A stretch of 32,000 nt of DNA, taken from Pseudomonas aeruginosa. Lineage in GTDB: Bacteria; Pseudomonadota; Gammaproteobacteria; Pseudomonadales; Pseudomonadaceae. A model generated the notes under the pieces. That model was not told the DNA's origin and did not search any database. It was given only the letters and a program-made list of their open reading frames with translations. The translations under genes were made by a program, and so were the position numbers. The number at the start of each line of letters is the position of its first letter. The stretch's first letter is position 1. The stretch lies in assembly GCF_001457615.1 (NCBI RefSeq), contig NZ_LN831024.1, forward strand, positions 2,610,001 to 2,642,000, written 5' to 3'. Of the stretch, positions 2,763 through 30,464 are shown in pieces.

Positions 2763-2953
2763 CATTCCGGGGACTCCGCCCCTTTTTCCTCGGCGTTGCG
2801 TTCCAGCTGCCACGCGCGACGGCTGTGCAGCAGGGCGGCGAACTCGCGGGCCGCCCGCTCGTTGCGGAAGCAGATCCCGCGCGTGCCGAGGCGGACCCGC
2901 CAGAAAGGTTCAGCGTGGGTGTCCAGACGTTCGATCCAGAGCGTGTTCGGCAT
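2762..2953 (-). CDS. candidate small protein (63 aa), unknown function
   Basis: ATG at 2953 with AAGG 9 nt upstream. About 84% G/C at codon position 3 by my count (52 of 62 codons), which is typical of real genes here. It fills the otherwise empty 150 nt between the TerC stop and the terminator and overlaps the TerC 3' end by 44 nt. I recognised no family. Confidence 0.4.
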   Translation of the reverse strand: MPNTLWIERLDTHAEPFWRVRLGTRGICFRNERAAREFAALLHSRRAWQLERNAEEKGAESPE

Positions 2954-3953
2954 TCGGTTCGGCCTTGTCCTCGACGGTGGCTTTCGGTGTGCGGGTCTTC
3001 AGCAGGGAGAGCAGGATGCCGCCCGCCAGCAGGCCGAAGGTTACGCCAAGCGAGAGGCCGGCGGGAATCTTGCCGATCACACCGTGGAGCATGATCTTCG
3101 CACCGATGAACACCAGCACCAGGGCCAGGGCGTATTTCAGGTAGACGAAGCGGTGGATCATCGCCGCCAGCGAGAAGTACAGGGCGCGCAGGCCGAGGAT
3201 GGCGAAGATGTTCGAGGTGTAGACGATGAACGGGTCCTGGGTGATGGCGAAGATCGCCGGCACGCTGTCCACCGCGAACACCAGGTCGGCCAGCTCGATC
3301 AGCACCAGGGCGAAGAACAGCGGGGTGGCGTAGCGCACCAGCTTGCCGCTGGCGTCCGGCAGGCGGACGAAGAAGTGATGCTCGTGCAGTTCCTTGGTCA
3401 CCCGCATGTGCTTGCGCAGGAAGCGCAGCACCGGGTTGTGCTCCAGGTCGGGTTCTTCCTCGTGCTTGTTGAACAGCATCTTCACGCCGCTGAACAGCAG
3501 GAAGGCGCCGAACACGTACATGATCCAGTCGAATTCCTTCACCAGCGCGGCGCCCAGGCCGATCATGATCGCCCGCAGGACGATGGCGCCGAGGATGCCC
3601 CAGAACAGCACCTGGTGCTGGTAGCGGCGGGGGATGCCGAAGAAACTGAAGATCATCGCCATGACGAACACGTTGTCCATCGATAGCGACTGTTCGACCA
3701 GGAAGCCGGTGTAGTACTCCACCGCGCTGGTGGGGCCGAAGGCGTACCAGACCCAGCCGCCGAAGGCCAGGCCGCAGGCGAAGTAGCCGGCGGACAGCAG
3801 CAGGCTTTCGCGCACGCCGATTTCGTGGTGGTCGCGTTGCAGCACGCCGAGGTCGAGGACCAGGAGAACGATGACGATGGCCAGGAAGGCCAGCCAGAAC
3901 CAGATAGCCGTACCGAGGAACGGTTCGGTGAGAAATGCATGCAGAGCTGCCAT
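2910..3953 (-). CDS. TerC/Alx-family integral membrane protein
   Basis: 347-aa ORF with multiple hydrophobic helices and TerC-like segments (EQSLSMDNVFVMAMIF, ELADLVFAVDSVPAIFAIT). SD GAGGGGG lies at 3958-3964. Confidence 0.9.
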   Translation of the reverse strand: MAALHAFLTEPFLGTAIWFWLAFLAIVIVLLVLDLGVLQRDHHEIGVRESLLLSAGYFACGLAFGGWVWYAFGPTSAVEYYTGFLVEQSLSMDNVFVMAMIFSFFGIPRRYQHQVLFWGILGAIVLRAIMIGLGAALVKEFDWIMYVFGAFLLFSGVKMLFNKHEEEPDLEHNPVLRFLRKHMRVTKELHEHHFFVRLPDASGKLVRYATPLFFALVLIELADLVFAVDSVPAIFAITQDPFIVYTSNIFAILGLRALYFSLAAMIHRFVYLKYALALVLVFIGAKIMLHGVIGKIPAGLSLGVTFGLLAGGILLSLLKTRTPKATVEDKAEPNAEHALDRTSGHPR

Positions 3954-4041
3954 TGGGCCCCCTCGCTTCGAATTGTCGGATGGTCATGTGACTCCGACAT
4001 GGCGGCAATTGCTTACCGTCAGAGGGGCCCGCAGTCACTCG

Positions 4042-8911: not shown

Positions 8912-10651
8912 ATGAGACTGACTCAAGGATTGTTCCGGTTCCCGCTGGCCGGGCTGCTGTGCCTGAGTACGGCCGCCTTCGCGGAGAGCCAGCTTAGCGT
9001 GCGCGTCACCCCCGCCAATGCCGCCCTGAAGGCCAATATCGAGGCCTATGTGGGTAGCCTCGGCGAGCGGGACGAGGCGGCGTTGCAACGTTTCCGCCGC
9101 AATGCCGAGGCGCAGGCGGAAAAGGCGGCCCAGGCGCTCGGCTACTTCCAGGCGCAGATCGACAGCGAGGTGAAGGACGGCAAGCCGCCGAAGCTCACGC
9201 TCAAGGTAGTGCCCGGCGAGCCCGTGCGCCTGCGCCAGGTGAATATCCAGGTGCTCGGCGAGGCCGCCAGCCTGGAGAGCTTCCGCTTGCCGTCGGGCAA
9301 GCAGCTGAAACCGGGCGCGAAGCTGAACCAGGGTGTCTACGAGGATGCCAAGCGGCTGATCCAGAACCAGGCCTCGCGCTACGGCTTCTTCCAGGGCCGC
9401 TTCAGCACCCAGCGCCTGAGCATCGATCCGCGCGCCGGCATCGCCGACATCGACCTGGTCTACGACAGCGGCCAGCGCTACACCTTCGGCAAGGTGAGCT
9501 TCGACGGCGACTCGATCATCGAGGAAGAACTGTTGCGCCGCATGGTGCCGTTCAAGGCCGGCCAACCCTATGACTCCGAACTGATCGCCGAACTCAACCA
9601 GAACCTGCAATCCAGCGGTTACTTCGAGGGCGTGCGGGTCGACGCCGCGCCGACCCAGGCGCAGGCCGACGGCGCGCGCCAGGCGATCCCGGTAGCGGTC
9701 CGGCTGGAGGCGCGCAAGCCCCGGACCATGGGCGTCGGCCTCGGTTTCTCGACCGACGTCGGGGCGCGCGCGAGGTTCAACTGGACCCGCCATTGGGTGA
9801 ATGCCGAAGGACATAGCCTGGGATTCGAGTCGGAAATCTCCGCACCACGGCAGAACGTCGGCGCCTGGTACGAGATTCCCCTCGATCCGCCGCTCACCGA
9901 CAAGCTGCGCTTCACCAGCGGCTACCAGTTCGAAGACCTGGTCGACACCGAGAGCAAGCTGCTGACCCTTGGCGGCGAATGGCACAGCAAGCGGCCCGAT
10001 GGCTGGCAGCGGGTGGTTTCGCTGAACTGGATGCGCGAGGAGTACAAGCTGGGCGACGACTCCGGGCTGAGCAGCTTCCTGATGCCGGGGATCGGCTACT
10101 CGCTGCTGGAGACCGACAACAAGGTCGACCCCAGCCATGGCTACCGCCTGCAGTTCAACGTCAAGGGGGCGAAGGAAGGCCTGCTGGCCGACGCCGACGT
10201 CCTCCATGTCGACGCCATGGCCAAGGGCCTGACCAGCTTCGCCGGCGGCCATCGCCTGCTCGGCCGCCTGCAGGTAGGCGGAATCGCCACCAACGACTAC
10301 AAGTCGATCCCGCCCTCGCTGCGCTTCTTCGCTGGCGGCGACCAGAGCGTGCGTGGCTACGACTACCGGACGCTGTCGCCGGAGAATTCCGATGGCGACA
10401 AGATCGGCGGCCGCTACATGATCGCCGGCAGCGTCGAGTATCAATATCCGCTGGCCGAGCGCTGGCGCCTGGCGACCTTCGTCGACCAGGGCAACGCCTT
10501 CAACTCGCTGGACTTCCCGTCGATCAAGACCGGGGTCGGCTTCGGCGTGCGCTGGGTCTCGCCGGTCGGCCCGTTGCGCCTCGACCTGGCCCATGCGCTC
10601 GACGACGACGGCGGTTTCCGCCTGCACTTCTCCATGGGGCCAGAACTGTGA
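8912..10651 (+). CDS. tamA: translocation and assembly module outer-membrane subunit TamA (Omp85 family)
   Basis: 579-aa ORF with a signal peptide ([12 protein letters not shown]). It has POTRA-like repeats ([10 protein letters not shown]...) and a C-terminal beta-barrel with [12 protein letters not shown] and a terminal aromatic-rich strand. Its stop overlaps the tamB start (GTGA). Confidence 0.9.
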
Positions 10652-13600
10652 AGGCGCTGAAGATCACCTTGCTGGCCATAGTCGGGCTGCTCCTCGCGCT
10701 GCTCCTGGGACTCGCTGCGCTGCTCGGCACCCAGACCGGCAGCGCCTGGCTGCTCGGCCGCGTGCCGGGCCTGCAGGTCAGCGGCTTCGAGGGTCGCCTC
10801 GGTGGCGCCTGGCAGGCACAGCGGCTGTCCTGGGCGCAGGACGGTACGCAACTGGTCGTCGAGCGGCCTGAACTGCGCTGGTCGCCGGCCTGCCTGGCGG
10901 GGCTGCGCCTGTGCCTGCAGCGGGTGGCCGCCGAACGGGTCGCGCTGGACCTGCCGCCGAGCGGCGACAGCGCCGACAGCGGGCCGATCAGCCTGCCGAC
11001 GCTGAAACTGCCGCTGAGCATCGAACTCGGCGAAGTGGCGGTCGGCAGCTTCCTGCTCGACGGCAACCAGCAGGTCGCCGAACTCAAGCTGGCGGCCCAT
11101 TGGCTGGCCGACGGCCTGCACATCGACTCGCTGACGGCGCGGGGCTTCGGCCTGGACCTGGCGCTCCAGGGGCGCTTGCAGCCGAGCGGCGACTGGCCCT
11201 TGCAGGCCGAAGCCACGCTCGGCCTGCCCGCTCCCGAAGACAAGCCGTGGAAGCTGGCCGTCCAGGTCGGCGGTGAACTGCAGAAGGCGCTGACCCTGAA
11301 AGGCCGCAGCAGCGGTTACCTGGACGGCAGCCTGGAAGGACAGTTGCAGGCGCTGGCGGAAAACCTGCCGGCACGATTGCTGATCCGCGCCGACGGTTTC
11401 AAGGGGGCGGCCGGACTACCGGACACCTTGACCCTGAATGCCATCCAGCTCGATGCCAGCGGCGATCTCAAGAGCGGTTACCTGATCCGCGGCGGCGCCA
11501 GCCTGCCGGGCGAGGGCGGGGCGGTGGCGTTGAGCCTGGACGGGCGGGTCGACGCCCAGGGCGCGGATATCCGCCAACTGCGCCTGGACGCTGGCGGCGA
11601 GCAGCGCCTGGAGCTGGTCGGACGCCTGGACTGGCGCGAAAGCCTGGCCGCCGACGCGACCCTGGACTGGAAGGATTTCCCCTGGCTGCGCCTGTATCCG
11701 CTGGCGGAGCCGCCGCCGGTGACGCTGAAGACCTTCAAGGCGGAAGTGCATTACCAGGACCAGCGCTACCTGGGCAATTTCAGCGCGGCGGCGAGCGGTC
11801 CGGCGGGCGACTTCACGCTGGCCAGCCCGGTGTCCGGCGACCTCGTCCAGCTCAACCTGCCGTCGCTGCAGCTCCGCGCCGGGCAAGGCCAGGCCGAGGG
11901 GAGGGTGACGTTGCGTTTCGACAATGGCGTGGCTTGGGATACCGCCCTGCAGCTCAGCGAACTGAACCCGGCTTACTGGGTCGCCGAGCTGCCGGGTTCA
12001 CTGGCCGGTCCCTTGCGTAGCCAGGGAAGTGTTCGCGACGAGCGGCTGGCGTTGGGCGTGGATCTCGACGTCAAGGGCCGCCTGCGCGGCCAGCCGGCGC
12101 TATTCCAGGCGCGCGCCGAAGGCGAGGGGCAGCGCTGGACGCTGGGCAACCTCGACCTGCGCCTGGGGGATAACAAGGTTCAGGGCAGCGGGGCGCTCGA
12201 CCAGCGCCTGCAAGGCCGCCTGGACATCGCCCTGAACCGTCTCGGCCAGCTTTGGCCGCAACTCTTCGGTCGCCTCGACGGACGCCTCGACCTGGCTGGC
12301 AGCCTCGCGGCGCCGCAAGGCAGGCTGAACCTCAAGGGACAGCAGATCGCCTACGCCGAGCAGCGCATCGCCGGCCTCGACCTGCAGGCGAACCTCGATG
12401 CCCGGCAGAACGGCACCCTGGCGCTGGTCGCTTCCGGCCTGCGCAGCGGCGAAACCGACCTCGGCCTGTTCAAGGCCAATGCCCGCGGCGACCAACGCCG
12501 CCAGCAACTGGAACTGGACCTGCAAGGTGCCTTGCTCAAGCTCGGCCTGGCCTTCGACGGGCAACTGGAGCGCGGCAACTGGCGCGGTCGCCTGGCGCGC
12601 GGCGAGTTGAGCAGTGGCGGCCAGGACTGGAAACTACAGCAGCCGGCGCGCCTGGAGCGGTTGGCCGACGGCAGGGTCAATTTCGGCGCACATTGCTGGG
12701 TATCCGGCGCCGCCAGCCTCTGCGGCGGCGAGCAGCGCCTGCTGCCCGAGCCGCGGCTGCGCTACACCCTGCGCGACTTCCCGCTGGACAGCCTGAAGCA
12801 ATGGTTCCCCGAGGACTTCGCCTGGCAGGGCAAGCTGAACGGCGACCTGCAACTGGACGTTCCGGCCCGCGGCCCGAGCGGCGTGGTCAGCCTGGACGCC
12901 GGCAGCGGTACGCTGCGCCTGCGCGACCAGGGCCAGTGGGTCGACGTCGGCTACGACAGCCTGCGCCTGGAGAGCCGGTTGGCGCCCAACCGCGTCGATA
13001 CCTCCCTCGACTTCCGCGGACCGAAGCTCGGCGAGTTGCGGGTGCAGGCGCAGATCGACCCGCGCCCGGCGAGCAAGCCGCTGAGCGGCGAGTTCAGCCT
13101 GGCCGGCCTCGACCTGTCGCTGGCGCGCCCGTTCGTGCCGATGGTGGAGAAACTGCAAGGCAGGCTGAACGGCAGCGGCCGGCTGTCCGGCGGCCTGCTG
13201 GCGCCGCGGGTCGACGGACGGGTGACGCTGAGCGACGGCAACATTGGCGGCGGCGAGCTGCCGACCAGCTTCGAGAACCTTTCCCTCGACGCTCGCATCG
13301 CTGGCGAAAGCCTGGAACTCGGCGGCGGCTGGCGCAGCGGCAGGTACGGCCAGGGCAGCCTGTCCGGCAACCTGAGCTGGGGCGAGGCGCTGAACGTCGC
13401 CCTGAACATCCGTGGCAACCGCCTGCCGGTGGTGGTCGATCCCTATGCGCAACTGGAGGTGGAACCGGACCTGAAGATCGGCATGGCCGGCCAGGAGCTG
13501 GCGATCTCCGGCAAGGTCCTGGTGCCGCGTGGCGACATCACCATCCGCCAGTTGCCGCCATCCACGGTCAAGGTCTCCGACGACGCGGTGATCGTCGGCT

Positions 13601-14313
13601 CCGAGCAGCCCGAGCAGCAGCCGCTGAAGATGAAGATGGACATCGATGTCGAGGTCGGCCAGGACAAGCTGGCGTTTTCCGGCTTCGGCCTCAGCGCCGA
13701 ACTGGCCGGCCACCTGCACATCGGCGACAACCTGGATACCCGCGGCGAGCTGAACCTGAACAAGGGCCGCTATCGTGCCTACGGCCAGCGCCTGACGATC
13801 CGTAGGGCGCGGCTGTTCTTCGCCGGACCGATCGACCAGCCGTACCTGGATATCGAGGCGATCCGCCGGGTCGACGACGTGGTCGCCGGCCTGCGCCTGA
13901 CCGGCAGCGCCGAGCAGCCGACCAGCGCGGTATTCTCCGAACCGGCGATGAGCCAGGAGCAGGCGTTGTCCTACCTGGTGCTGGGGCGGCCGATGAGCAC
14001 CGGCGAAGACAGCAACATGCTCGGCGAGGCGGCCCTGGCCCTGGGCCTGGCCGGTAGCGCACCGCTCACCGGGGAAATCGCCAAGCAGCTCGGCATCCAG
14101 GACTTCCAGCTGGACACCGAGGGCACCGGCAACAGCACCAGCGTGGTCGCCAGCGGGAATATCACCGACAAGCTCAGCCTGCGCTATGGTGTTGGAGTGT
14201 TCGAACCGGCAAATACCATCGCCTTGCGCTACCAGTTGACCAAACGCCTCTATCTCGAAGCGGCGAGCGGCCTGGCCAGTTCGCTGGACCTGTTCTTCAA
14301 GCGCGATTTCTGA
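10648..14313 (+). CDS. tamB: translocation and assembly module inner-membrane subunit TamB (AsmA-like, DUF490 C-terminus)
   Basis: GTG 10648 overlaps the tamA TGA (10649-10651). The N-terminal anchor is [28 protein letters not shown] long beta-rich repetitive body follows, then a DUF490-like end (GRYRAYGQRLTIRRARLFFAGPIDQPYLDIEA...LFFKRDF). This gives 1221 aa. Confidence 0.9.
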   Translation: MKALKITLLAIVGLLLALLLGLAALLGTQTGSAWLLGRVPGLQVSGFEGRLGGAWQAQRLSWAQDGTQLVVERPELRWSPACLAGLRLCLQRVAAERVALDLPPSGDSADSGPISLPTLKLPLSIELGEVAVGSFLLDGNQQVAELKLAAHWLADGLHIDSLTARGFGLDLALQGRLQPSGDWPLQAEATLGLPAPEDKPWKLAVQVGGELQKALTLKGRSSGYLDGSLEGQLQALAENLPARLLIRADGFKGAAGLPDTLTLNAIQLDASGDLKSGYLIRGGASLPGEGGAVALSLDGRVDAQGADIRQLRLDAGGEQRLELVGRLDWRESLAADATLDWKDFPWLRLYPLAEPPPVTLKTFKAEVHYQDQRYLGNFSAAASGPAGDFTLASPVSGDLVQLNLPSLQLRAGQGQAEGRVTLRFDNGVAWDTALQLSELNPAYWVAELPGSLAGPLRSQGSVRDERLALGVDLDVKGRLRGQPALFQARAEGEGQRWTLGNLDLRLGDNKVQGSGALDQRLQGRLDIALNRLGQLWPQLFGRLDGRLDLAGSLAAPQGRLNLKGQQIAYAEQRIAGLDLQANLDARQNGTLALVASGLRSGETDLGLFKANARGDQRRQQLELDLQGALLKLGLAFDGQLERGNWRGRLARGELSSGGQDWKLQQPARLERLADGRVNFGAHCWVSGAASLCGGEQRLLPEPRLRYTLRDFPLDSLKQWFPEDFAWQGKLNGDLQLDVPARGPSGVVSLDAGSGTLRLRDQGQWVDVGYDSLRLESRLAPNRVDTSLDFRGPKLGELRVQAQIDPRPASKPLSGEFSLAGLDLSLARPFVPMVEKLQGRLNGSGRLSGGLLAPRVDGRVTLSDGNIGGGELPTSFENLSLDARIAGESLELGGGWRSGRYGQGSLSGNLSWGEALNVALNIRGNRLPVVVDPYAQLEVEPDLKIGMAGQELAISGKVLVPRGDITIRQLPPSTVKVSDDAVIVGSEQPEQQPLKMKMDIDVEVGQDKLAFSGFGLSAELAGHLHIGDNLDTRGELNLNKGRYRAYGQRLTIRRARLFFAGPIDQPYLDIEAIRRVDDVVAGLRLTGSAEQPTSAVFSEPAMSQEQALSYLVLGRPMSTGEDSNMLGEAALALGLAGSAPLTGEIAKQLGIQDFQLDTEGTGNSTSVVASGNITDKLSLRYGVGVFEPANTIALRYQLTKRLYLEAASGLASSLDLFFKRDF

Positions 14314-15172: not shown

Positions 15173-16933
15173 ATGCGCGACGTACAGGAACTGCGTTTCA
15201 CCACCCACGACGGGGTAGAGCTCTTCTACCGCCACTGGCCGGCCAGCCGCCCGGCGCCGGACGGCACGCGCCAGGCGGTGCTGCTGTTCCACCGCGGCCA
15301 TGAGCACTCCGGGCGGATCGCCCACCTGGTCGACGAACTCGACCTGCCGGAACACGACTTCTTCGCCTGGGACGCCCGTGGCCACGGCCTCTCGCCAGGC
15401 GCCCGCGGCGACAGCCCGAGCTTTGCCACCAGCGTGCGCGACGTACAGACCTTCGTCGACCATATCCAGGCCGTCCACGGTATCGCCGAAGAGCGGATGG
15501 CGGTGGTGGCGCAGAGCGTCGGCGCGGTGCTGGTTTCCACCTGGGCCCACGACTACGCGCCGAAGGTGCGCGCACTGGTGCTGGCTTCGCCGGCGTTCCA
15601 GGTCAAGCTCTATGTGCCGTTCGCCCGCAGCGGGCTGAAACTGATGCGCCTGTGGCGCGGCAATTTCTTCGTCAACAGCTATGTCAAGGCACGCTTCCTC
15701 AGTCACGACCCGGAGCGGATCGCCTCCTACGACAGCGACCCGCTGATCGCCAAGGCGATCTCGGTGAACGTCCTGCTCGGCCTCTACGAAGCTGCCGAGC
15801 GGGTGGTAGCGGACGCACAGGCGATCCAGATTCCCACCCAACTGCTGATTTCCGGGGCCGACTTCGTCGTCCATCGTGCGCCGCAGGAGCGCTTCTTCGA
15901 GCGTCTCGGCAGCCTGCGCAAGGAAAAGCACATCCTGCCCGGCTTCTTCCACGACACCCTTGGCGAGCGCGATCGTCACCTGGCCGTCGGCCGTGCCCGG
16001 CGCTTCCTCCTCGAGGCATTCGCCACGGCACCTGAACGACCGAGCCTGCTCGATGCCGACCGCCTGGGCCATACCTGCGCCGAGGCCGAGGCGCTGGCCG
16101 CGCCGTTGCCGAAGAACTCGCCGCGCGATCTCTACTGGCGCGCCACCCGTGCCGGGCTGCGCCTGGGCAGCCTGTGGTCGGACGGGGTCAAGCTGGGCTT
16201 CGACACCGGCTTCGATTCCGGCAGCACCCTCGACTATGTCTACCGCAACCAGCCCAGCGGCAGCGGCCCGCTGGGTCGCCTGATCGACCGCAACTACCTG
16301 GACTCCATCGGCTGGCGCGGCATCCGCCAGCGCAAGCTGCACGCCGAGGAGCTGCTGCGCCTGGCCATGCAGCGGTTGCGCGAGGAGCAGCGCGAGGTGC
16401 GCATCGTCGACATCGCCGCCGGCCACGGCCGCTACATCCTCGAAGCCCTGCAAGGCGTCGAGCCGCTGCCGGAAAGCATCCTCCTGCGCGACTACAGCGA
16501 GATCAACGTGCGTGACGGCAGCGCCCTGATCGAAAGCAAGGGCCTCGCCGGCATCGCCCGCTTCGTCAAGGGCGATGCCTTCGATCGCGCCGACCTGGCG
16601 GCGCTGCAACCGAAGCCGAGCCTCGGGGTGGTTTCCGGGCTCTACGAGCTGTTCGCCGACAACCGCATGGTCGGCGACTCCCTCGCCGGCCTCGGCGAGG
16701 CGCTGGAGGAGGGCGGCTACCTGGTCTACACCGGACAGCCCTGGCACCCGCAGCTGGAACTGATCGCCCGCGCGCTGACCAGCCACCGCCAGGGCCAGGC
16801 CTGGGTGATGCGGCGCCGGACCCAGGCGGAAATGGACCAGCTGGTGGCCGCCGCCGGCTTCCGCAAGATCACCCAGCGGGTCGACCAGTGGGGCATCTTC
16901 AGCGTATCGCTGGCGCAGAAGGTCGCCCGCTGA
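15173..16933 (+). CDS. fusion protein: N-terminal alpha/beta hydrolase (lysophospholipase/monoacylglycerol-lipase type) plus C-terminal class I SAM-dependent methyltransferase (YnbC-like)
   Basis: 586 aa. The hydrolase part has LLFHRGHEHSGR (oxyanion-hole type), a nucleophile elbow AQSVG, and GFFHDTL (His). The methyltransferase part has VRIVDIAAGHGRY (motif I), LLRDYS (post-I acidic residue) and VVSGLYELF. Confidence 0.8.
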   Translation: MRDVQELRFTTHDGVELFYRHWPASRPAPDGTRQAVLLFHRGHEHSGRIAHLVDELDLPEHDFFAWDARGHGLSPGARGDSPSFATSVRDVQTFVDHIQAVHGIAEERMAVVAQSVGAVLVSTWAHDYAPKVRALVLASPAFQVKLYVPFARSGLKLMRLWRGNFFVNSYVKARFLSHDPERIASYDSDPLIAKAISVNVLLGLYEAAERVVADAQAIQIPTQLLISGADFVVHRAPQERFFERLGSLRKEKHILPGFFHDTLGERDRHLAVGRARRFLLEAFATAPERPSLLDADRLGHTCAEAEALAAPLPKNSPRDLYWRATRAGLRLGSLWSDGVKLGFDTGFDSGSTLDYVYRNQPSGSGPLGRLIDRNYLDSIGWRGIRQRKLHAEELLRLAMQRLREEQREVRIVDIAAGHGRYILEALQGVEPLPESILLRDYSEINVRDGSALIESKGLAGIARFVKGDAFDRADLAALQPKPSLGVVSGLYELFADNRMVGDSLAGLGEALEEGGYLVYTGQPWHPQLELIARALTSHRQGQAWVMRRRTQAEMDQLVAAAGFRKITQRVDQWGIFSVSLAQKVAR

Positions 16934-18282
16934 TGGCGCCGCGCGAGCCGGGGGTACTGAAGCGGGCGGTGCTCTGGCTGCTGTTCCTCGGCCCGTTCTT
17001 CTTCGCCAGCTATGGCCTGGCCAACTGGTTGACCAGCCAGCGCGGCGACGTCGGCAGCCTGGTCTTCGACTGGGAACGCGGGATGCCGCTGTGGCCCTGG
17101 ACCATCCTGCCGTACTGGTCGATCGACCTGCTCTACGGCCTGTCGCTGTTGTTGCCGCGGGACAAGCGCGAGCTGGACACCCACTGCCTGCGCCTGCTCA
17201 GCACCCAGGTGCTGTCGGTGACCTGCTTCCTGCTGTTCCCCCTGCGCTTCACCTTCGAACGGCCGGAACTGGGCGGCGTGTTCGGCTGGCTGTTCGACGT
17301 GCTGATGGGGTTCGACAAACCGTACAACCAGGCACCGTCGCTGCACATCGCCCTGCTGGTAGTGCTCTGGGTCTGCTACGCGCGCTACGCCAGCGGCGCC
17401 TGGCGCTGGCTGCTGCATGGCTGGTTCGCGCTGATCGGGCTGTCGGTGCTGACCACCTGGCAGCACCATTTCATCGACGTGCCCACCGGCGCGCTGGCCG
17501 GTTGGCTGTGCGTCTGGCTGTGGCCGCAGGCGCAGCCCGCGCCGTTCGCCCGCGCCAGTCTGAGCCGCGACCGGCAACGGCGGCGGCTGGCCGCTCGCTA
17601 CGGCCTCGGCGCGCTGGCCTGCGCCGCCGTCGCCTTTGCCGTCGGCGGTGCGGCGTTGTGGCTGTGCTGGCCGGCGCTGGCGCTGGCGCTGGTGGCGCTG
17701 AACTACCTGCTGTTCGGCGCCGCCGGCTTCCAGAAGGGCAGCACTGGCCGCCTGAGCGCCGCCGCGCGCTGGCTGCTGGCGCCATATCTGCTTGCCGCGC
17801 GGATCAACGCCTGGCTCTGGACCCGTCGCCGGCCGCAGCCGGACGAGGTGCTGCCGGGCCTCTGGTTGGGGCGCCTGCCGTCGTCCGCGGAACTGGCCGA
17901 CGGCCGCTTCCGCGCATTGCTCGACGCTACCGCCGAACTTTCCTGCGAGCCGCAGGGGCTGGCCTATCGCAGCCTGCCGTTGCTCGACCTGGTCGCGCCG
18001 GACGTCGAGGACTGCCGGCGCGCCGCGGTGCTGATCGACGAACTGCTGGCGCAAGGGCCGCTGCTGGTGGCCTGTGCCCTGGGCTATTCGCGCAGCGCCA
18101 CGCTGGTCGCCGCCTGGCTGCTGCTCAGCGGCCGCGCGGCGGACGTCGAGTCGGCCGTGGCCGTGTTACGTCGGGCGCGACCGCAAGTGCTGCTGGGCGA
18201 GGCCCAGCGGCGGACCCTCGCGGCGCTGAGCGGGAGCGTGCCGGAGCCATCGGCGGAACTGGGCGAGGTGCGCCATGCCTGA
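16933..18282 (+). CDS. fusion membrane protein: PAP2-superfamily domain plus C-terminal dual-specificity (CX5R) phosphatase domain (YnbD-like)
   Basis: ATG 16933 overlaps the upstream TGA (TGATG). The PAP2-type motifs are PSLH (17335-17346) and QHHFIDVPTG (17461-17490), within a polytopic N-terminal half. The P-loop VACALGYSRS has Cys at 18073-18075 and Arg at 18091-18093. Confidence 0.8.
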   Translation: MAPREPGVLKRAVLWLLFLGPFFFASYGLANWLTSQRGDVGSLVFDWERGMPLWPWTILPYWSIDLLYGLSLLLPRDKRELDTHCLRLLSTQVLSVTCFLLFPLRFTFERPELGGVFGWLFDVLMGFDKPYNQAPSLHIALLVVLWVCYARYASGAWRWLLHGWFALIGLSVLTTWQHHFIDVPTGALAGWLCVWLWPQAQPAPFARASLSRDRQRRRLAARYGLGALACAAVAFAVGGAALWLCWPALALALVALNYLLFGAAGFQKGSTGRLSAAARWLLAPYLLAARINAWLWTRRRPQPDEVLPGLWLGRLPSSAELADGRFRALLDATAELSCEPQGLAYRSLPLLDLVAPDVEDCRRAAVLIDELLAQGPLLVACALGYSRSATLVAAWLLLSGRAADVESAVAVLRRARPQVLLGEAQRRTLAALSGSVPEPSAELGEVRHA

Positions 18283-18727
18283 GCAAACCCTGGCCCTGGT
18301 GGCGGCCCTGCTGCGCCGTGGCCGCGAGCTTGACCGGCTGTCCGCCGCACTGACCCTGCTGGCCATCGGGCTGGGCCTGTACCAGGCCGTGCAGGGCATC
18401 GGCTGGCGCTATTTCGCTGCGGCGATGCTGGCGATCGCCATGCTCGGCCTGTGGCAGAAGTACTGGGCGCTGCGAGTGGCCCTGGACGCCGAACTGTTCG
18501 AACGTTTCAGCCGCGTCGGCGACAGGCTGGAAGCGCAGACCCAAGACCTGGACCGGGCCCTGGCCGATCTCGGCCTGGCCCGAGCGGACGCCGCAGGGCG
18601 CACCTGGAACCAGCGCAGCCGCGGCGCCCTGCGCCTGCTACGCTGGCAGGCGCTGGCCTGTGGCGCCCAGTTCCTGCTGGCCTTGTCGTGCCTGTTGTCG
18701 ATCCCTCTATTCAACGCTCAAACCTGA
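18275..18727 (+). CDS. small membrane protein, unknown function (150 aa)
   Basis: ATG 18275 overlaps the upstream gene by 8 nt. It has three hydrophobic segments (LTLLAIGLGLY, FAAAMLAIAMLGLW, AQFLLALSCLLSIPLF) around a charged helical stretch. Codon bias is consistent with coding. Confidence 0.65.
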   Translation: MPEQTLALVAALLRRGRELDRLSAALTLLAIGLGLYQAVQGIGWRYFAAAMLAIAMLGLWQKYWALRVALDAELFERFSRVGDRLEAQTQDLDRALADLGLARADAAGRTWNQRSRGALRLLRWQALACGAQFLLALSCLLSIPLFNAQT

Positions 18728-18738
18728 AGAGTCTTCCC

Positions 18739-19368
18739 ATGCTCGAATCAGTCGTCGCCTATGGCATCATCGCCGGCGCCCGCGCCATCACCGGCTTGCG
18801 CAGCCTCTGGCTGGGCACCACGCCGATCCCCAAGCAACGCATCTATTACGCCAACCACAGCAGCCATGGCGACTTCGTCCTGCTCTGGGCCTCGCTGCCG
18901 CCGGAGGTGCGGCGGCGTACCCGGCCGGTGGCGGGCGCCGACTACTGGAACAAGGCCGGCCTGCGCAGCTACGTGATCAACAAGGTGTTCAACGGCGTGC
19001 TGGTCGACCGCCAGCGCAGCGAGGCCAATGCCAATCCGCTCGAACCCCTCGACCGCGCCCTGGACGGCGGCGATTCGCTGATCATCTTCCCCGAGGGCAC
19101 CCGCAACCTGGACGACGAGGTCAAGCTGTTGCCATTCAAGAGCGGTATCTACCACCTGTCCCTGGCCCACCCGGACGTCGAGCTGGTGCCGGTCTGGCTG
19201 GCCAACCTCAACCGGGTCATGCCCAAGGGCCGCATGCTGCCGTTGCCGCTGCTCTGCACCCTGAGCTTCGGCAAGCCGCTGGTCGCCACGGCGGAAGAAG
19301 GCAAGGAGGCGTTCCTCGAACGAGCGCGCATGGCCCTGCTGGACCTGGCGCCGGAAGAGGAGGCCTGA
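18739..19368 (+). CDS. PlsC-type (lyso)phospholipid acyltransferase
   Basis: ORF 18451..19368, trimmed to ATG 18739 (MLESVVAYGI...), 11 nt after the previous stop. It carries the H(X)4D block NHSSHGD and the FPEGTR block. Confidence 0.85.
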   Translation: MLESVVAYGIIAGARAITGLRSLWLGTTPIPKQRIYYANHSSHGDFVLLWASLPPEVRRRTRPVAGADYWNKAGLRSYVINKVFNGVLVDRQRSEANANPLEPLDRALDGGDSLIIFPEGTRNLDDEVKLLPFKSGIYHLSLAHPDVELVPVWLANLNRVMPKGRMLPLPLLCTLSFGKPLVATAEEGKEAFLERARMALLDLAPEEEA

Positions 19369-19369
19369 G

Positions 19370-20305
19370 ATGAACGAACAGACCTGGATGCTCTTCGGCG
19401 GGATCGGCGCGCTGCTGCTGCTCGCCTCGCTGGTCGGCTTCGTCCTCAAGTGGCGCGCCGGTCCCGGCCCGAACGCGGTGATCGACAACCTGAACGCACG
19501 GATCAACGCCTGGTGGGCGATGGTCCTGGTGATCGGTTTCGCCTTCTGGCTTGGCCAGGCGGCGGTGATCCTGCTGTTCTATGGCGTGTCGTTCTACGCC
19601 CTGCGCGAGTTCATCACCCTCACCCCGACCCGGCGCAGCGACTACCCGGCGCTGGTGGCGGCGTTCTACTTCGTGCTGCCGATGCAGTACCTGCTGATCT
19701 ACATCGACTGGTACAGCATGTTCTCGATCTTCATCCCGGTGTACGTGTTCCTGCTGTTGCCGATCCTCGCCTCGCTGGGCGGCGACACCAAGCACTTCCT
19801 CGAACGCGCCTCGAAAGTGCAGTGGGGCCTGATGCTGGCGGTGTTCTGTATCTCCTTCGTGCCGGCGCTGCTGACCCTCGACATCCCCGGCTTCGAGGGG
19901 CGCAACCTGCTGCTGATCGCCTACCTGGTGATCGTCGTGCAGCTCTCCGACGTGATGCAGTACATCTGCGGCAAGCTGTTCGGCAAGCGCAAGATCGCTC
20001 CCAACCTGTCGCCGTCGAAGACCGTCGAAGGCTTCGTCGGCGGCATCGCCCTGGCCACCGCCATCGGCGCCTCGCTGTGGTGGATCACCCCGTTCAACCT
20101 CTGGCAGGCGGCGCTGATCGCGCTGCTGATCAACCTGCTGGGCTTCTTCGGCGGCCTGGTGATGTCGGCGATCAAGCGCGACCGTGGGGTCAAGGACTGG
20201 GGGCACATGATCGAAGGCCACGGTGGCATGCTCGACCGCCTGGACTCGGTGTGCTTCGCCGCGCCGATCTTCTTCCACGTGGTGCGCTACTGGTGGACGC
20301 CCTGA
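19370..20305 (+). CDS. phosphatidate cytidylyltransferase (CDP-diglyceride synthase) paralogue, YnbB-like
   Basis: 311-aa polytopic ORF starting 1 nt after the acyltransferase stop. It carries the CdsA signature SAIKRDRGVKDWGHMIEGHGGMLDRLDS and SPSKTVEG. Confidence 0.9.
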   Translation: MNEQTWMLFGGIGALLLLASLVGFVLKWRAGPGPNAVIDNLNARINAWWAMVLVIGFAFWLGQAAVILLFYGVSFYALREFITLTPTRRSDYPALVAAFYFVLPMQYLLIYIDWYSMFSIFIPVYVFLLLPILASLGGDTKHFLERASKVQWGLMLAVFCISFVPALLTLDIPGFEGRNLLLIAYLVIVVQLSDVMQYICGKLFGKRKIAPNLSPSKTVEGFVGGIALATAIGASLWWITPFNLWQAALIALLINLLGFFGGLVMSAIKRDRGVKDWGHMIEGHGGMLDRLDSVCFAAPIFFHVVRYWWTP

Positions 20306-26168: not shown

Positions 26169-27494
26169 TCAGAGCGTGAGGGTGAAGCGCCCGGTCAGCG
26201 CGCCCGGCAGGTGCGTCGAGTCGGTCTGGCGTTCGCCGTAGGTATTGCTGGACAGGCGCAGTTCGCGCTCGTGGCTGAGGTCTTCCAGGTGGGCGCCGAG
26301 GAAGCTGTACAGGCTGTCGTCGAAGCGCATGGTGCTGACCGGTGCCCGGATCTGGCCGTTCTCCACCCAGAAGGTGGCGAAGCGGGTCATTCCGGTCAGG
26401 CGCGCGGCGGGCATGTCCGAGTAGTTCAGGTACCACAGGTTGCCGATGTACAGGCCGGTATCCAGGGCCTCGAGGATGCGCGCCTGCTCCAGGCTGCCGC
26501 CGGCCATGTCCAGCGCCGTGGGCGCCTCGTTGGCGCCGGCGCCATTGGCTACCAGGCCGTATTCGCGGGCGCTGCGCGAACTCACCAGGCGTCCGCTCAG
26601 GCGGCCGTTGCCGACCAGTTCGACCTCGGCGCGCGGCGAGCCTTCCGCGCTGAATGCCGGGGAGGGCGAGGTGGCAGGGCGCTCGGCGAGGTTCAGCAGC
26701 GGGCTGAGCAGGGCGTCGCCGTTCTGCAGGCGTTGCAGGGGGCTTTCGCCGGTAGCCAGGGCGCGCGCGGAGAAACCGCCCCAGCAGAGCATCTGCATGA
26801 CTTCCTCGAGCGCCGCCGGCGCCAGGTAGGCGCGATAGTCGCCGGGGCGCAACTGGCGCAGCGGCTTGCCCAGGTGGCCGAGCTGCTCCCGGGCCTGTTC
26901 GAAGCGCCGGGCGAAGGCTTCGTCGTCCCAGCGCTGGCCGGCGTAGTCGGCCTTCACCGCCTGGCCGTTGCCATGGAACAGGCTCCAGTCGAAGTTGAAG
27001 CTGCTGCCGGCATGCCAGCCGAAGGCGCCCCAGGAGTTGGCGAAGCCACGGAACAGCGGTCCGGCGGCATAGATGCCGACCAGGTCGAGGTCGCGCGCCC
27101 GGCGTTCGAGGCTGGCCAGCAGCGCGCCGCTGTCGGGCGCTGCGCCGAGGTCCTGGTTCTCTCGCTGCCAGGCCGAGGTGTCGAGCAGCAGATAGGGATC
27201 GGCGGGAATCCAGGCCAGGCTCTGGCGCAGTTGCCGAAGGCCTTCGACCAGACGCTGGCGGTCTTCTTCCGGCGCGCCGGAGAGCGTCAGGTCGAGGCTC
27301 GCCTGGCGTTCGTCGCGGATCAGCCGGAGCAGCGCGCTGGCCTGGCGCACCCGACCGGCCTGGCGCACCCGCGCCCGGTTGAAGCGGATGAACTCGGAGT
27401 CCTCGGCGCTGTACCAGAGGGTGAAGTCCTCGCCCTCGGCCAGGTGTCGGCGCAGGTCCTCGGCGAGGGCTTCGAAATGCTGTCTCTGGTGCAT
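26169..27494 (-). CDS. PmbA/TldE-like (TldD partner) metalloprotease-family protein
   Basis: Only the 441 aa from ATG 27494 (MHQRQHFEALAEDL...) are coding. The ATG overlaps the TldD-like stop (TGATG). The C-terminus is PmbA_TldD-fold-like (GLYIGNLWYLNYSD...TGMTRFATFWVENGQI). It has no HExxxH motif. Confidence 0.75.
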   Translation of the reverse strand: MHQRQHFEALAEDLRRHLAEGEDFTLWYSAEDSEFIRFNRARVRQAGRVRQASALLRLIRDERQASLDLTLSGAPEEDRQRLVEGLRQLRQSLAWIPADPYLLLDTSAWQRENQDLGAAPDSGALLASLERRARDLDLVGIYAAGPLFRGFANSWGAFGWHAGSSFNFDWSLFHGNGQAVKADYAGQRWDDEAFARRFEQAREQLGHLGKPLRQLRPGDYRAYLAPAALEEVMQMLCWGGFSARALATGESPLQRLQNGDALLSPLLNLAERPATSPSPAFSAEGSPRAEVELVGNGRLSGRLVSSRSAREYGLVANGAGANEAPTALDMAGGSLEQARILEALDTGLYIGNLWYLNYSDMPAARLTGMTRFATFWVENGQIRAPVSTMRFDDSLYSFLGAHLEDLSHERELRLSSNTYGERQTDSTHLPGALTGRFTLTL

Positions 27495-28927
27495 CAGGCG
27501 TCTCCCCCGAATACGTCCACATCGCTGAATACGCAGGCCGGCGAGGCGTGGCCGACACGGATCACCTGGTTCGGCTCGCCCTTGCCGCAGTAGGGGGTGC
27601 CGAGCACCTCGAAGGTGCCGGCGTCGCCCACCGCGCTGAGGTTGCGCCAGAACTGCGCGGAGATGCCCCGGTAGTTGGGGTTCTTCACCACGCCCTTGAG
27701 TTCGCCGTCCTCGATCAACTGGCCCCATTCGCAGCCGAACTGGAACTTGTTGCGTGCGTCGTCGATCGACCAGGAGCGGTTGTAGGACATCAGCACCCCG
27801 CGCTCGATACCGCCCACCAGCTGCGCGAAGCTCTTGTCGCCGGGCTCCAGGTTGAGATTGGCCATGCGGTCGATGGGCGCGCGGTTCCAACTGCTGGCGC
27901 GGCTGTTGGCGACGCCCTCCAGGCCGCTGCGGTGTTGCGACAGGGCGCCGCCGAGCGGGCGCAGCAGGCGGCCTTCGCGGATCAGGTATTCCTTGCGCGC
28001 GGGGCTGCCGTCGTCGTCCTGGCGGTAGCTGGCCAGCTCCTCGGGGATTTCCGGGTCGAAGCTGACGTTGAGCAGGCTGGAGCCGTACTGGTAGCGACCG
28101 AAGTCCTCGGTCTTGATGAAGCTGGTACCGGCGTAGTTGCGCTCGTCGCCGAGGATGCGATCCAGCTCCAGCGGGTGGCCGATCGACTCGTGGATCTGCA
28201 GGATCATCTGGTCCGGCATCAGCAGCAGGTCGCAACGGCCGCTCGGGGTGTTCGGCGCCGCCAGCAGTTGCAGGGCCTGGTCGGCGATGCGCGGCGCGGC
28301 GCCGACCAGGCCGAGGCGCTCGATCACTTCGGCGCCGCCCTGCTGGCCGGCATGGTGGCCGCCGAAACTGCGGGTCTGGCTGTCATGGCCGTCGTAGGCG
28401 GTGACGCTGGCGCCGGGATAGACGAAGCGCTGCTCGTGGTATTGCTCGGCGCCGGCGCTGTTCAGGTAGAGCTGTTCCTGGCGGCTGACTTCGAGGAATA
28501 CGCTCCAGTTCACCAGGCGCTCGTCGCGCGGCACCTTGGCGGACTCCTCGGCGAGCAGTTCGTAGCACTCGGCGAGGGAGGGGAAAGGGGCGTCCTGGTT
28601 CGGCGAGCGATACTGCGAGCGGCCGCTTGCCGGCGGCAATCCGCGGACGTCGAACAGGGCGTGCCGGGCGATCCGCTCGGCTTGCCGCTCGGCCTGCTCC
28701 AGGGCGGCCTGCAGGCCGGCCGCGGAGAGATCGTTGGTGGCGGCGTAGGCTTCCACGCCGTTCAGCCGTACGCAGAGCATGGCGCCGCGGTCCTGGCTGA
28801 AGTGCGGCGGTTCGCTGACGTTGCGGCGCACCGAGAGGTACTCGCCGCTACGCTGGACGTAGCGCAAGGAGTGGAATTCGGCGCGGCTGCGGAGCGCCGC
28901 GAAGCGGTGTTTCAACGGGTCGATCAT
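27494..28927 (-). CDS. TldD-like zinc metalloprotease
   Basis: 477 aa. It carries the HExxxH-type motif IHESIGHPLELD and a C-terminal GxC motif region (GTPYCGKGEPNQVIRVGHASP) typical of TldD. Confidence 0.8.
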   Translation of the reverse strand: MIDPLKHRFAALRSRAEFHSLRYVQRSGEYLSVRRNVSEPPHFSQDRGAMLCVRLNGVEAYAATNDLSAAGLQAALEQAERQAERIARHALFDVRGLPPASGRSQYRSPNQDAPFPSLAECYELLAEESAKVPRDERLVNWSVFLEVSRQEQLYLNSAGAEQYHEQRFVYPGASVTAYDGHDSQTRSFGGHHAGQQGGAEVIERLGLVGAAPRIADQALQLLAAPNTPSGRCDLLLMPDQMILQIHESIGHPLELDRILGDERNYAGTSFIKTEDFGRYQYGSSLLNVSFDPEIPEELASYRQDDDGSPARKEYLIREGRLLRPLGGALSQHRSGLEGVANSRASSWNRAPIDRMANLNLEPGDKSFAQLVGGIERGVLMSYNRSWSIDDARNKFQFGCEWGQLIEDGELKGVVKNPNYRGISAQFWRNLSAVGDAGTFEVLGTPYCGKGEPNQVIRVGHASPACVFSDVDVFGGDA

Positions 28928-29078
28928 CTGTGCGTCCCTGGCCGATTGCGGAGTGGGCGAGTGCAGGACGCTCTATTTCAAGCCTTCGCCCGTAACGGAG
29001 CAAGCCGTTTGTTGTCATAGCCTGGTGCCAGGCTGCGGGTGGCTCGCCGAAGCATGCGGGCGGAATGCCTAACTATCG

Positions 29079-29105
29079 GTAAAGCAAGGGTAAATAGCGG
29101 GTAAA
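29079..29105 (+). promoter_or_regulatory. three phased GTAAA direct repeats (CpxR-type response-regulator boxes)
   Basis: GTAAA occurs at 29079-29083, 29090-29094 and 29101-29105. The period is exactly 11 bp and each copy is preceded by G(G). The array ends 6 nt upstream of a putative -35. Confidence 0.6.
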
Positions 29106-29111
29106 GAGGCT

Positions 29112-29139
29112 TTGCCTGGGCCCCCGCAATGCTTATCGT
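29112..29139 (+). promoter_or_regulatory. putative sigma70 promoter of muxA
   Basis: TTGCCT (29112-29117), 16-nt spacer, TATCGT (29134-29139). It lies 45 nt upstream of ATG 29184. Each hexamer matches the consensus at 4 of 6 positions. Confidence 0.3.
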
Positions 29140-29183
29140 GCAGCCTGGAAAAAGCGCCTCCGTTCTAAGCCTGAAGAAGAACC

Positions 29184-30464
29184 ATGACTCCAACGACCGG
29201 TAAATCCAAGTTCCGTACCCTGCGCCCGTGGCTGATCACCGCCCTGGCCTTCGCCGCCGTGATCGGCCTGGTGATGTGGCTGGCGGCGCCCGCCTCGGCA
29301 CCGTCCTCCGACGGGCGACCCGGTCGCGGCGGCAAGCCGGGCGCCGCGCTGCCCAAGGCCAACGCGCTCACCGTCGGCGTGGCCAGGGTGGAGCAGGGCG
29401 ACCTGGCGCTGCATTTCAACGCGCTTGGCACCGTCACCGCCTTCAACACGGTGAACGTCAAGCCGCGGGTCAACGGCGAGCTGGTCAAGGTGCTGTTCCA
29501 GGAGGGGCAGGAGGTCAAGGCCGGCGACCTGCTGGCGGTGGTCGACCCGCGTACCTACAAGGCGGCGCTGGCCCAGGCCGAGGGCACGCTGATGCAGAAC
29601 CAGGCGCAACTGAAGAACGCCGAGATCGACCTGCAGCGCTACAAGGGGCTGTACGCCGAGGACTCGATCGCCAAGCAGACCCTGGATACCCAGGAAGCCC
29701 AGGTCCGCCAGTTGCAGGGCACCATCCGTACCAACCAGGGCCAGGTCGACGACGCCCGCCTCAACCTGACCTTCACCGAGGTCCGCGCACCGATTTCCGG
29801 GCGCCTCGGCCTGCGCCAGGTGGACATCGGCAACCTGGTCACCAGCGGCGATACCACGCCGCTGGTGGTGATCACCCAGGTCAAGCCGATCTCGGTGGTG
29901 TTCAGCCTGCCGCAGCAGCAGATCGGCACCGTCGTCGAGCAGATGAACGGCCCCGGCAAACTGACGGTCACCGCGCTGGACCGCAACCAGGACACGGTTC
30001 TCGCCGAAGGCACCCTGACCACCCTGGACAACCAGATCGACACCACCACCGGCACGGTCAAGCTCAAGGCGCGCTTCGAGAACGCCGACGGCAAGCTGTT
30101 CCCCAACCAGTTCGTCAACGTGCGCCTGCTGGCGCAGACCCTCAAGGGCGTGCTGACCATTCCGGCCAACGCCGTGCAGCGCGGCACCAACGGTATCTAT
30201 GTGTACGTGGTCGGCGCCGACAACAAGGTCAGCCAGCGCAGCGTCGCCATCGGCACCAGCGAGAACGAGCGGGTGGTGGTGGAAAGCGGCCTGAAGGCCG
30301 GCGAGCAGGTGGTGGTGGAAGGCACCGACCGCCTGCGCGACGGTATGGAAGTGCGTGTCGCCGAGGCCTCCCCGCAGGTCCTCGAGGGCGAGCCGCAGAA
30401 ACCGCAGACTGGCCGCCCCAGCGGCCTCCAGGGCGACTCGGTGGGTAGCGGGAGCGCTGAATGA
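29184..30464 (+). CDS. muxA: RND efflux periplasmic adaptor (membrane fusion protein), MdtA-like
   Basis: 426 aa. It has an N-terminal anchor, a lipoyl/hairpin region ([34 protein letters not shown]...), and [13 protein letters not shown]. Its stop overlaps the next ATG (ATGA). Confidence 0.9.

Follow-up and report, generated by a model that had tools for sequence, protein, structure and literature searches.

Operators of the OmpR/PhoB family, exemplified by the pho boxes and the OmpR sites F1-F3 and C1-C3, consist of direct repeats that recur every 10-11 bp and are occupied by head-to-tail winged-helix dimers. Pho boxes and OmpR sites are located just 5' of a poor -35 region or replace it, and adjacent units allow cooperative loading. 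In general, regulators of the OmpR family bind as head-to-tail dimers to direct repeats lying one helical turn apart and activate transcription from a position just 5' of a poor -35. CpxR is a response regulator of this family (Trouillon et al. 2021). Its consensus has been published as GTAAA-N(4-8)-GTAAA (PMC5063474, PMC12802237). The boxes of cpxP (GTAAAGCTTGGGTAAA) and mexA (GTAAACCTAATGTAAA) are, like that of muxA, direct repeats GTAAA-N6-GTAAA which respond to the same activator. Binding of CpxR~P was demonstrated by Tian et al. in EMSAs with cpxPp and mexAp and in a DNase I footprint with mexAp alone, and a two-base change in one pentamer of mexA (mexApM1) abolished activation (PMC5063474). 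The mexA site is 246 nt away from the ATG, lies upstream of a distal promoter and exists only in P. aeruginosa; those of muxA and cpxP, by contrast, occur genus-wide (PMC5063474). Furthermore, cpxP and mexA are listed as single two-pentamer sites, while muxA has three pentamers (PMC12802237). Similar three-pentamer arrays in the same table are those of PA3965 and of yceJ/PA3575, the latter with GTCAA as one copy. From the pho boxes and OmpR sites the muxA array differs in the sequence of its half-sites and in their odd number (three), where the former are made of whole dimer boxes.

In E. coli, mdtABCD-baeSR is an orthologous RND operon of the MdtA/MuxA type, which contains two RND subunits and is also under the control of envelope-stress two-component systems. 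Within the mdtA promoter of strain K-12 (locus L081, NC_000913.3 2153300-2154300), a BaeR-box-like sequence, TTTTTCTCCCTTATTGGC, was detected at locus positions ~645-662, i.e. ~55-70 nt before the mdtA ATG. An exact GTAAA-N(4-8)-GTAAA was not found in this promoter. The BaeR box TTTTTCTCCATDATTGGC, which is present upstream of E. coli K-12 mdtA, had no match with up to three mismatches in the window (the whole stretch of 32,000 nt of P. aeruginosa DNA analyzed here). Control of muxA by BaeR as in E. coli was rejected since the window is devoid of this box. According to Tian et al. (PMC5063474), E. coli mdtABCD possesses CpxR sites, yet CpxR regulates the operon negatively. The orthologous pump has been rewired, with BaeR control in E. 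coli as opposed to direct activation by CpxR in Pseudomonas, and this difference in wiring is already in the literature.

The muxA gene, which encodes the periplasmic adaptor and is the first gene of muxABC-opmB, extends from 29184 to 30464 on the plus strand of the window (NF008589 MdtA/MuxA equivalog, 418 bits at a cut-off of 391). The ORF directly after it encodes a MuxB-type RND permease. Divergent from muxA, two tandem genes of the PmbA/TldD family resembling PA2529 and PA2530 are located at 26169-28927 on the minus strand. The PA2529-like gene (27494-28927, minus strand) carries the Pfam PmbA_TldD domains 1 to 3. Both genes scored far under the TldD equivalog cut-offs, and their products are therefore to be regarded as divergent members of the family. 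Among the loci sampled, a PmbA/TldD pair beside muxA is a neighbourhood specific to P. aeruginosa. With the ATG of the PA2529-like gene ending at 28927 and that of muxA at 29184, the intergenic region amounts to 256 nt. Its G+C content is 58.6% versus 67.6% for the whole window.

Some other features of the window may be mentioned briefly. A terC RNA motif (RF03067) was identified at 3985-4040 on the minus strand, with 48.6 bits in Rfam compared to a gathering score of 39.9. It is positioned directly 5' of a gene for a TerC-family membrane protein (ORF 2910-3953, minus strand; Pfam TerC, 1e-56), which is the expected cis-regulatory pairing. The TamA (Omp85/POTRA_TamA_1) and TamB pair of the translocation and assembly module at 8912-14313 (plus strand), whose stop and start codons overlap, showed nothing unusual. 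At 15173-20305 on the plus strand, a gene for a fused alpha/beta-hydrolase (Hydrolase_4)-Methyltransf_20 protein of 586 aa is followed by an acyltransferase gene and then by a CTP_transf_1 (CDP-diglyceride synthase-like) gene. This set looks like a lipid-modifying operon; among the operons listed in PMC12802237, its counterpart is PA2536-PA2540.

Between the PA2529-like gene and muxA, three direct copies of GTAAA are present on the plus strand, a distal one at 29079-29083 (P1), a middle one at 29090-29094 (P2) and a proximal one at 29101-29105 (P3). They are preceded by CTATCG, separated by GCAAGG and TAGCGG, respectively, and followed by GAGGCTTTGCCTGG. The period of the array is exactly 11 bp from start to start, and each copy has a G in front of it (GGTAAA). 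P1 and P2 delimit the 16-mer GTAAAGCAAGGGTAAA at 29079-29094, P2 and P3 the 16-mer GTAAATAGCGGGTAAA at 29090-29105. The array ends at 29105, which is 78 nt 5' of the muxA ATG and 6 nt 5' of a conserved -35 region. A preliminary description of this DNA had reported three GTAAA copies with an exact 11-bp period, a TTGCCT 6 nt past them at 29112-29117, a TATCGT at 29134-29139 and an intergenic region of 256 nt; our reading agreed with all of these coordinates, and the pattern search revealed the array to be unique. Allowing for up to one mismatch, the triple GTAAA-N6-GTAAA-N6-GTAAA matched the 32-kb window at this site only, and none of 100 dinucleotide-preserving shuffles of the window yielded a match with one mismatch permitted. 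Just two GTAAA-N6-GTAAA pairs exist in the window, both overlapping within the array, while 0.02 were expected. The total number of GTAAA words on both strands was ordinary (six, with 6.9 expected), and three of the six fall within the 27 nt of the array.

The array is the already published CpxR site of muxA, down to the exact 16-mers, and the finding as such is not new. Tian et al. 2016 (PMC5063474) compared the RND-operon promoters of 15 Pseudomonas genomes and reported a conserved CpxR motif on the muxA promoter. Table 1 of the mBio 2025 study (PMC12802237) lists for PA2528 GTAAATAGCGGGTAAA at -78 and GTAAAGCAAGGGTAAA at -89, each scored positive for the motif and for DAP-seq, the DAP-seq mark being tabulated there second-hand from the original dataset. 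These 16-mers, which have P2 in common, are identical letter for letter to 29090-29105 and 29079-29094 of the window, and the tabulated distances from the ATG agree with those in the window. The known CpxR box at muxA/PA2528 (PMC5063474, PMC12802237) and our array thus do not differ in sequence. Since the array is the published box itself, it displays the motif, the position and the conservation by which CpxR boxes are recognized in silico, with two overlapping exact N6 repeats of the form GTAAA-N(4-8)-GTAAA and a location before muxA that agrees with the positional rule of PMC12802237. The published text searched does not discuss the three-pentamer geometry at muxA; two overlapping sites are listed instead.

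The functional data point in the same direction. In a PA14 delta-cpxR strain carrying the vector, a muxAp::lacZ fusion gave 34 Miller units; pCpxR raised this value to 1613, and pCpxR-D52A yielded 38 (PMC5063474). Ectopic overexpression of CpxR is not a proof of regulation by physiological amounts of the protein, a point on which the cpxS alleles do bear. The orthologous promoter of P. putida, PP_3585p, rose from 66 to 307 Miller units with CpxR (PMC5063474). RNA-seq of a cpxS(T163P) mutant revealed log2 fold changes of 3.97 for muxA (~16-fold), 3.53 for muxB, 3.36 for muxC and 3.37 for opmB (PMC12802237), and the clinical allele cpxS delta-86-98 raised muxA and cpxP mRNA and lowered cefiderocol susceptibility (PMC12959141). 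Across 411 transcriptomes, muxABC-opmB was placed in the CpxR iModulon, co-varying with the Cpx locus (PMC9508857). A 2023 paper on the cpxS resistome restates that muxABC-opmB is controlled by CpxR and that Pseudomonas species have this in common (PMC10648845). Neither EMSA nor footprint on a muxA fragment is reported by Tian et al., and mutagenesis of the muxAp pentamers, which has a counterpart in mexApM1, was not found in the literature examined (PMC5063474). The main text of the HT-SELEX atlas mentions neither CpxR nor muxA. The preliminary description had proposed an envelope-stress input of the CpxR type into muxABC-opmB through GTAAA-N6-GTAAA, which agrees with the reporter, DAP-seq, cpxS and iModulon data, and its suggestion that muxA is listed among promoters with a CpxR box proved correct, PA2528 being an entry in the table of PMC12802237. 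The P. aeruginosa consensus GTAAA-N6-GTAAA given there, on the other hand, is valid for the strongest sites (cpxP, mexA and muxA), while the published form has a spacer of four to eight nucleotides. Altogether, we consider it very likely that the array serves as the operator through which CpxR acts on the muxABC-opmB promoter of P. aeruginosa.

Conservation was surveyed at no fewer than 80 loci for relatives of MuxA (at least 80 were returned), which shared 51-73% identity and were taken from one genome per species, the P. aeruginosa representative standing outside this listing. Among the matches listed, 75 of the 80 other-species loci contained one exact GTAAA-N6-GTAAA per ~6-kb locus, always on the muxA strand and just 5' of muxA. 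Retention of the repeats at other Pseudomonas mux promoters, whose failure would have spoken against the original proposal, is thereby borne out for the loci listed. One locus (L017) has GTAAG-N6-GTAAA in place of the exact pair, and the exact pair was missing in the four most distant loci listed (Achromobacter, an Alcaligenaceae MAG, Stenotrophobium). In an ungapped alignment of 76 muxA promoters anchored on the proximal pentamer, P2 and P3 were GTAAA in all 76 among the matches listed. Sequence varied freely upstream of the array and in the spacer that separates -35 from -10; a fourth repeat farther upstream, at the -33 register, was not supported by these 76 promoters since its columns were unconserved. 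The register of P1 was occupied in other species by GTAAG (51), GTCAG (12) or GTCAA (2), and a perfect P1 was seen in the window alone, so that three perfect copies are peculiar to P. aeruginosa among the matches listed. The intergenic region was identical (256/256) in another assembly with the same MuxA protein; identity within the species is based on this one exact-protein look-up.

For the core promoter facing muxA, a putative -35 region, CTTTGCCT, was assigned to 29110-29117 on the plus strand. It comprises the conserved hexamer TTGCCT at 29112-29117, which agrees with TTGACA in four of six positions. The putative -10 hexamer, TATCGT at 29134-29139 (plus strand), is conserved as well and agrees with TATAAT in four of six positions, including A2 and T6. 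The two hexamers are separated by 16 nt. A scan of 28850-29260 for sigma-70 promoters with at least nine of 12 matches to TTGACA-N(16-18)-TATAAT called no site; TTGCCT-N16-TATCGT scores 8/12 and is below this cut-off. Among the matches listed, however, the -35 register lies at a fixed distance from P3 and reads CTTTGC in 61 and CTTTTC in 12 of the 76 promoters, and the -10 region TGCTTATCGT or a one-base variant of it occupies the same ungapped columns in 76/76. The proposed -35 and -10 were accepted due to this conservation of sequence and spacing, not because of consensus strength. The earlier suggestion of a plausible -35/-10 pair thus gains support from the alignment, even though the scan calls none. 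As operator, -35 and -10 keep the same columns in all 76 aligned promoters, the distances between them are invariant across the genus. Judged by its conserved position and sequence, TTGCCT/TATCGT is likely to be an activator-dependent promoter, and such a weak core (8/12, uncalled) fits both the near-silent 34 Miller units and the ~47-fold activation. Transcription may start near 29147, ~7 nt past the -10, which would correspond to ~2855328 on the minus strand of PAO1. A mapped start site of muxA was not found, and the supplement examined of one PAO1 5'-end study has no entry for PA2528. With a start at ~29147, the pentamers would be centred near -44, -55 and -66 and the dimer sites near -49.5 and -60.5, all of these values being estimates.

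Further repeats in the vicinity of the array deserve mention. Another GTAAA is located at 29200-29204 on the plus strand, within codons 6-7 of muxA (GGT AAA). It is also preceded by a G and begins 99 nt (9 x 11) past P3; if it is counted, four of the window's six GTAAA words fall inside 126 nt. At the same offset from P3, GTAAA was missing in all 75 other-species loci among the matches listed, and the copy is therefore probably a coincidence. In 14 loci (L013, L030-L033, L035, L036 and relatives; P. mandelii/P. lini-type), an extra GTAAA is present in the 5' leader of muxA, 49 nt downstream of P3 and in the context CCTCATGTAAAA or CCCGTAAAAG, which is a lineage-specific trait. P3 and the -35 region together (29101-29115, plus strand) read GTAAAG-AGG-CTTTGC. 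This is an imperfect palindrome, as GTAAAG has CTTTAC for its reverse complement. Both halves are kept genus-wide as GGTAAAG..(G/C)CTTTGC. Inverted sequences of the GTAAA...TTTAC type occur under some CpxR DAP-seq peaks in the mBio 2025 table (PMC12802237). The conservation of the palindrome at muxA may simply be that of the -35. Apart from these elements, the intergenic region contained just weak two-copy matches and imperfect palindromes, none of which was compelling.

The following course of events is proposed for the activation of muxABC-opmB. Envelope stress or activating mutations of CpxS lead to phosphorylation of CpxR (PA3204) on Asp52. The phosphorylated protein then binds head-to-tail to the GTAAA direct repeats, which are spaced by one helical turn. 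The invariant pair P2-P3 (29090-29105), centred near -49.5 and adjoining the weak -35, is probably the core dimer site, from which bound CpxR may recruit RNA polymerase or stabilize it on the promoter, which is near-silent in the absence of CpxR. P1 might provide a second, overlapping dimer register (centre near -60.5) or a dock for an additional subunit, and would probably increase occupancy and hence sensitivity. The position of the transcription start, the stoichiometry, the contact with the polymerase and whatever the third pentamer may contribute are what we infer in this scheme. As to the origin of P1, an ancestral operator composed of two strong half-sites and one weak half-site could have been strengthened specifically in P. 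aeruginosa by the perfect third copy, with three half-sites on the same face loading more than one CpxR dimer, be it in two overlapping registers or in the form of one dimer and an additional subunit held cooperatively. We put this forward only tentatively, as it is rather doubtful. The parts of the literature examined neither tested nor discussed it. If it were true, muxABC-opmB should be activated at a lower threshold, or respond more steeply to CpxS signalling, when compared with cpxP and other two-pentamer promoters, and the three-pentamer sites of PA3965 and yceJ would constitute, together with muxA, a distinct class of CpxR operators.

Is CpxR the only protein that uses the repeats? They might be shared with, or mainly used by, another regulator of the OmpR family (KdpE, AmgR, PirR or PA1157), so that the muxA promoter would integrate several inputs. 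According to the DAP-seq atlas, the motifs of KdpE and CpxR are very similar (Trouillon et al. 2021), and KdpE, AmgR, PirR and PA1157 have similar motifs and targets in common with CpxR. In addition, three half-sites could accommodate dimers in more than one register. CpxR may thus not be the sole user of the repeats. By contrast, the genetics are specific for CpxR, the delta-cpxR strain being complemented by CpxR but not by the D52A variant (PMC5063474). Gain-of-function alleles of cpxS induce muxA along with cpxP (PMC12802237, PMC12959141), and the fact that muxABC-opmB and the Cpx locus vary jointly across 411 transcriptomes (PMC9508857) speaks for CpxR as well. Sharing of the site with a relative, or its main use by one, is accordingly held to be improbable.

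Another possibility is that the divergent PmbA/TldD-like operon, PA2529-PA2530, is the target of the array, either alone or bidirectionally with muxA. The array does lie inside the shared intergenic region of 256 nt, 152 nt from the PA2529-like ATG, and CpxR sites were reported to be functional in either orientation (PMC5063474). However, PA2529 and PA2530 are missing from the list of differentially expressed genes of the cpxS(T163P) mutant, where PA2525-PA2528 show a 10- to 16-fold increase (PMC12802237). When the 2.5 kb upstream of muxA were searched by tblastn, none of the 80 other-species loci gave a PA2529 homologue, and 75 of them have kept the array, among the matches listed. Moreover, the array abuts the -35 facing muxA at a fixed distance. 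As the two genes are absent from the list and the array persists where no PA2529 homologue exists, it is to be assigned to muxA. The gene expression data and the synteny among the matches listed thus speak against an effect on the divergent TldD-like gene, which the preliminary description had named as being driven from the same intergenic region, and we regard such control as highly unlikely. Finally, that the pentamers are a functionless chance cluster of A/T-rich words, as the lower G+C content of the intergenic DNA (58.6% versus 67.6%) and the accidental GTAAA at 29200 inside muxA might suggest, is ruled out for all practical purposes by the shuffles (0/100 with a triple, even with one mismatch), by the invariance of P2 and P3 in 76/76 promoters whose flanking columns vary (among the matches listed) and by the published reporter and DAP-seq data (PMC5063474, PMC12802237).

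Since the link from CpxSR to MuxABC-OpmB has already been established, the array as an operator of CpxR adds no new biology. It represents an independent confirmation, in that an experimentally supported regulatory site was recognized from sequence alone. Small refinements are the rigid geometry of the core promoter over ~75 species and the degenerate P1 outside P. aeruginosa, both among the matches listed. Gain-of-function cpxS alleles in patient isolates increase muxABC-opmB expression and decrease the susceptibility to beta-lactams, cefiderocol among them (PMC12959141, PMC10648845). Because it is muxABC-opmB that these alleles raise, the operator formed by the array is the cis element of this route to resistance.
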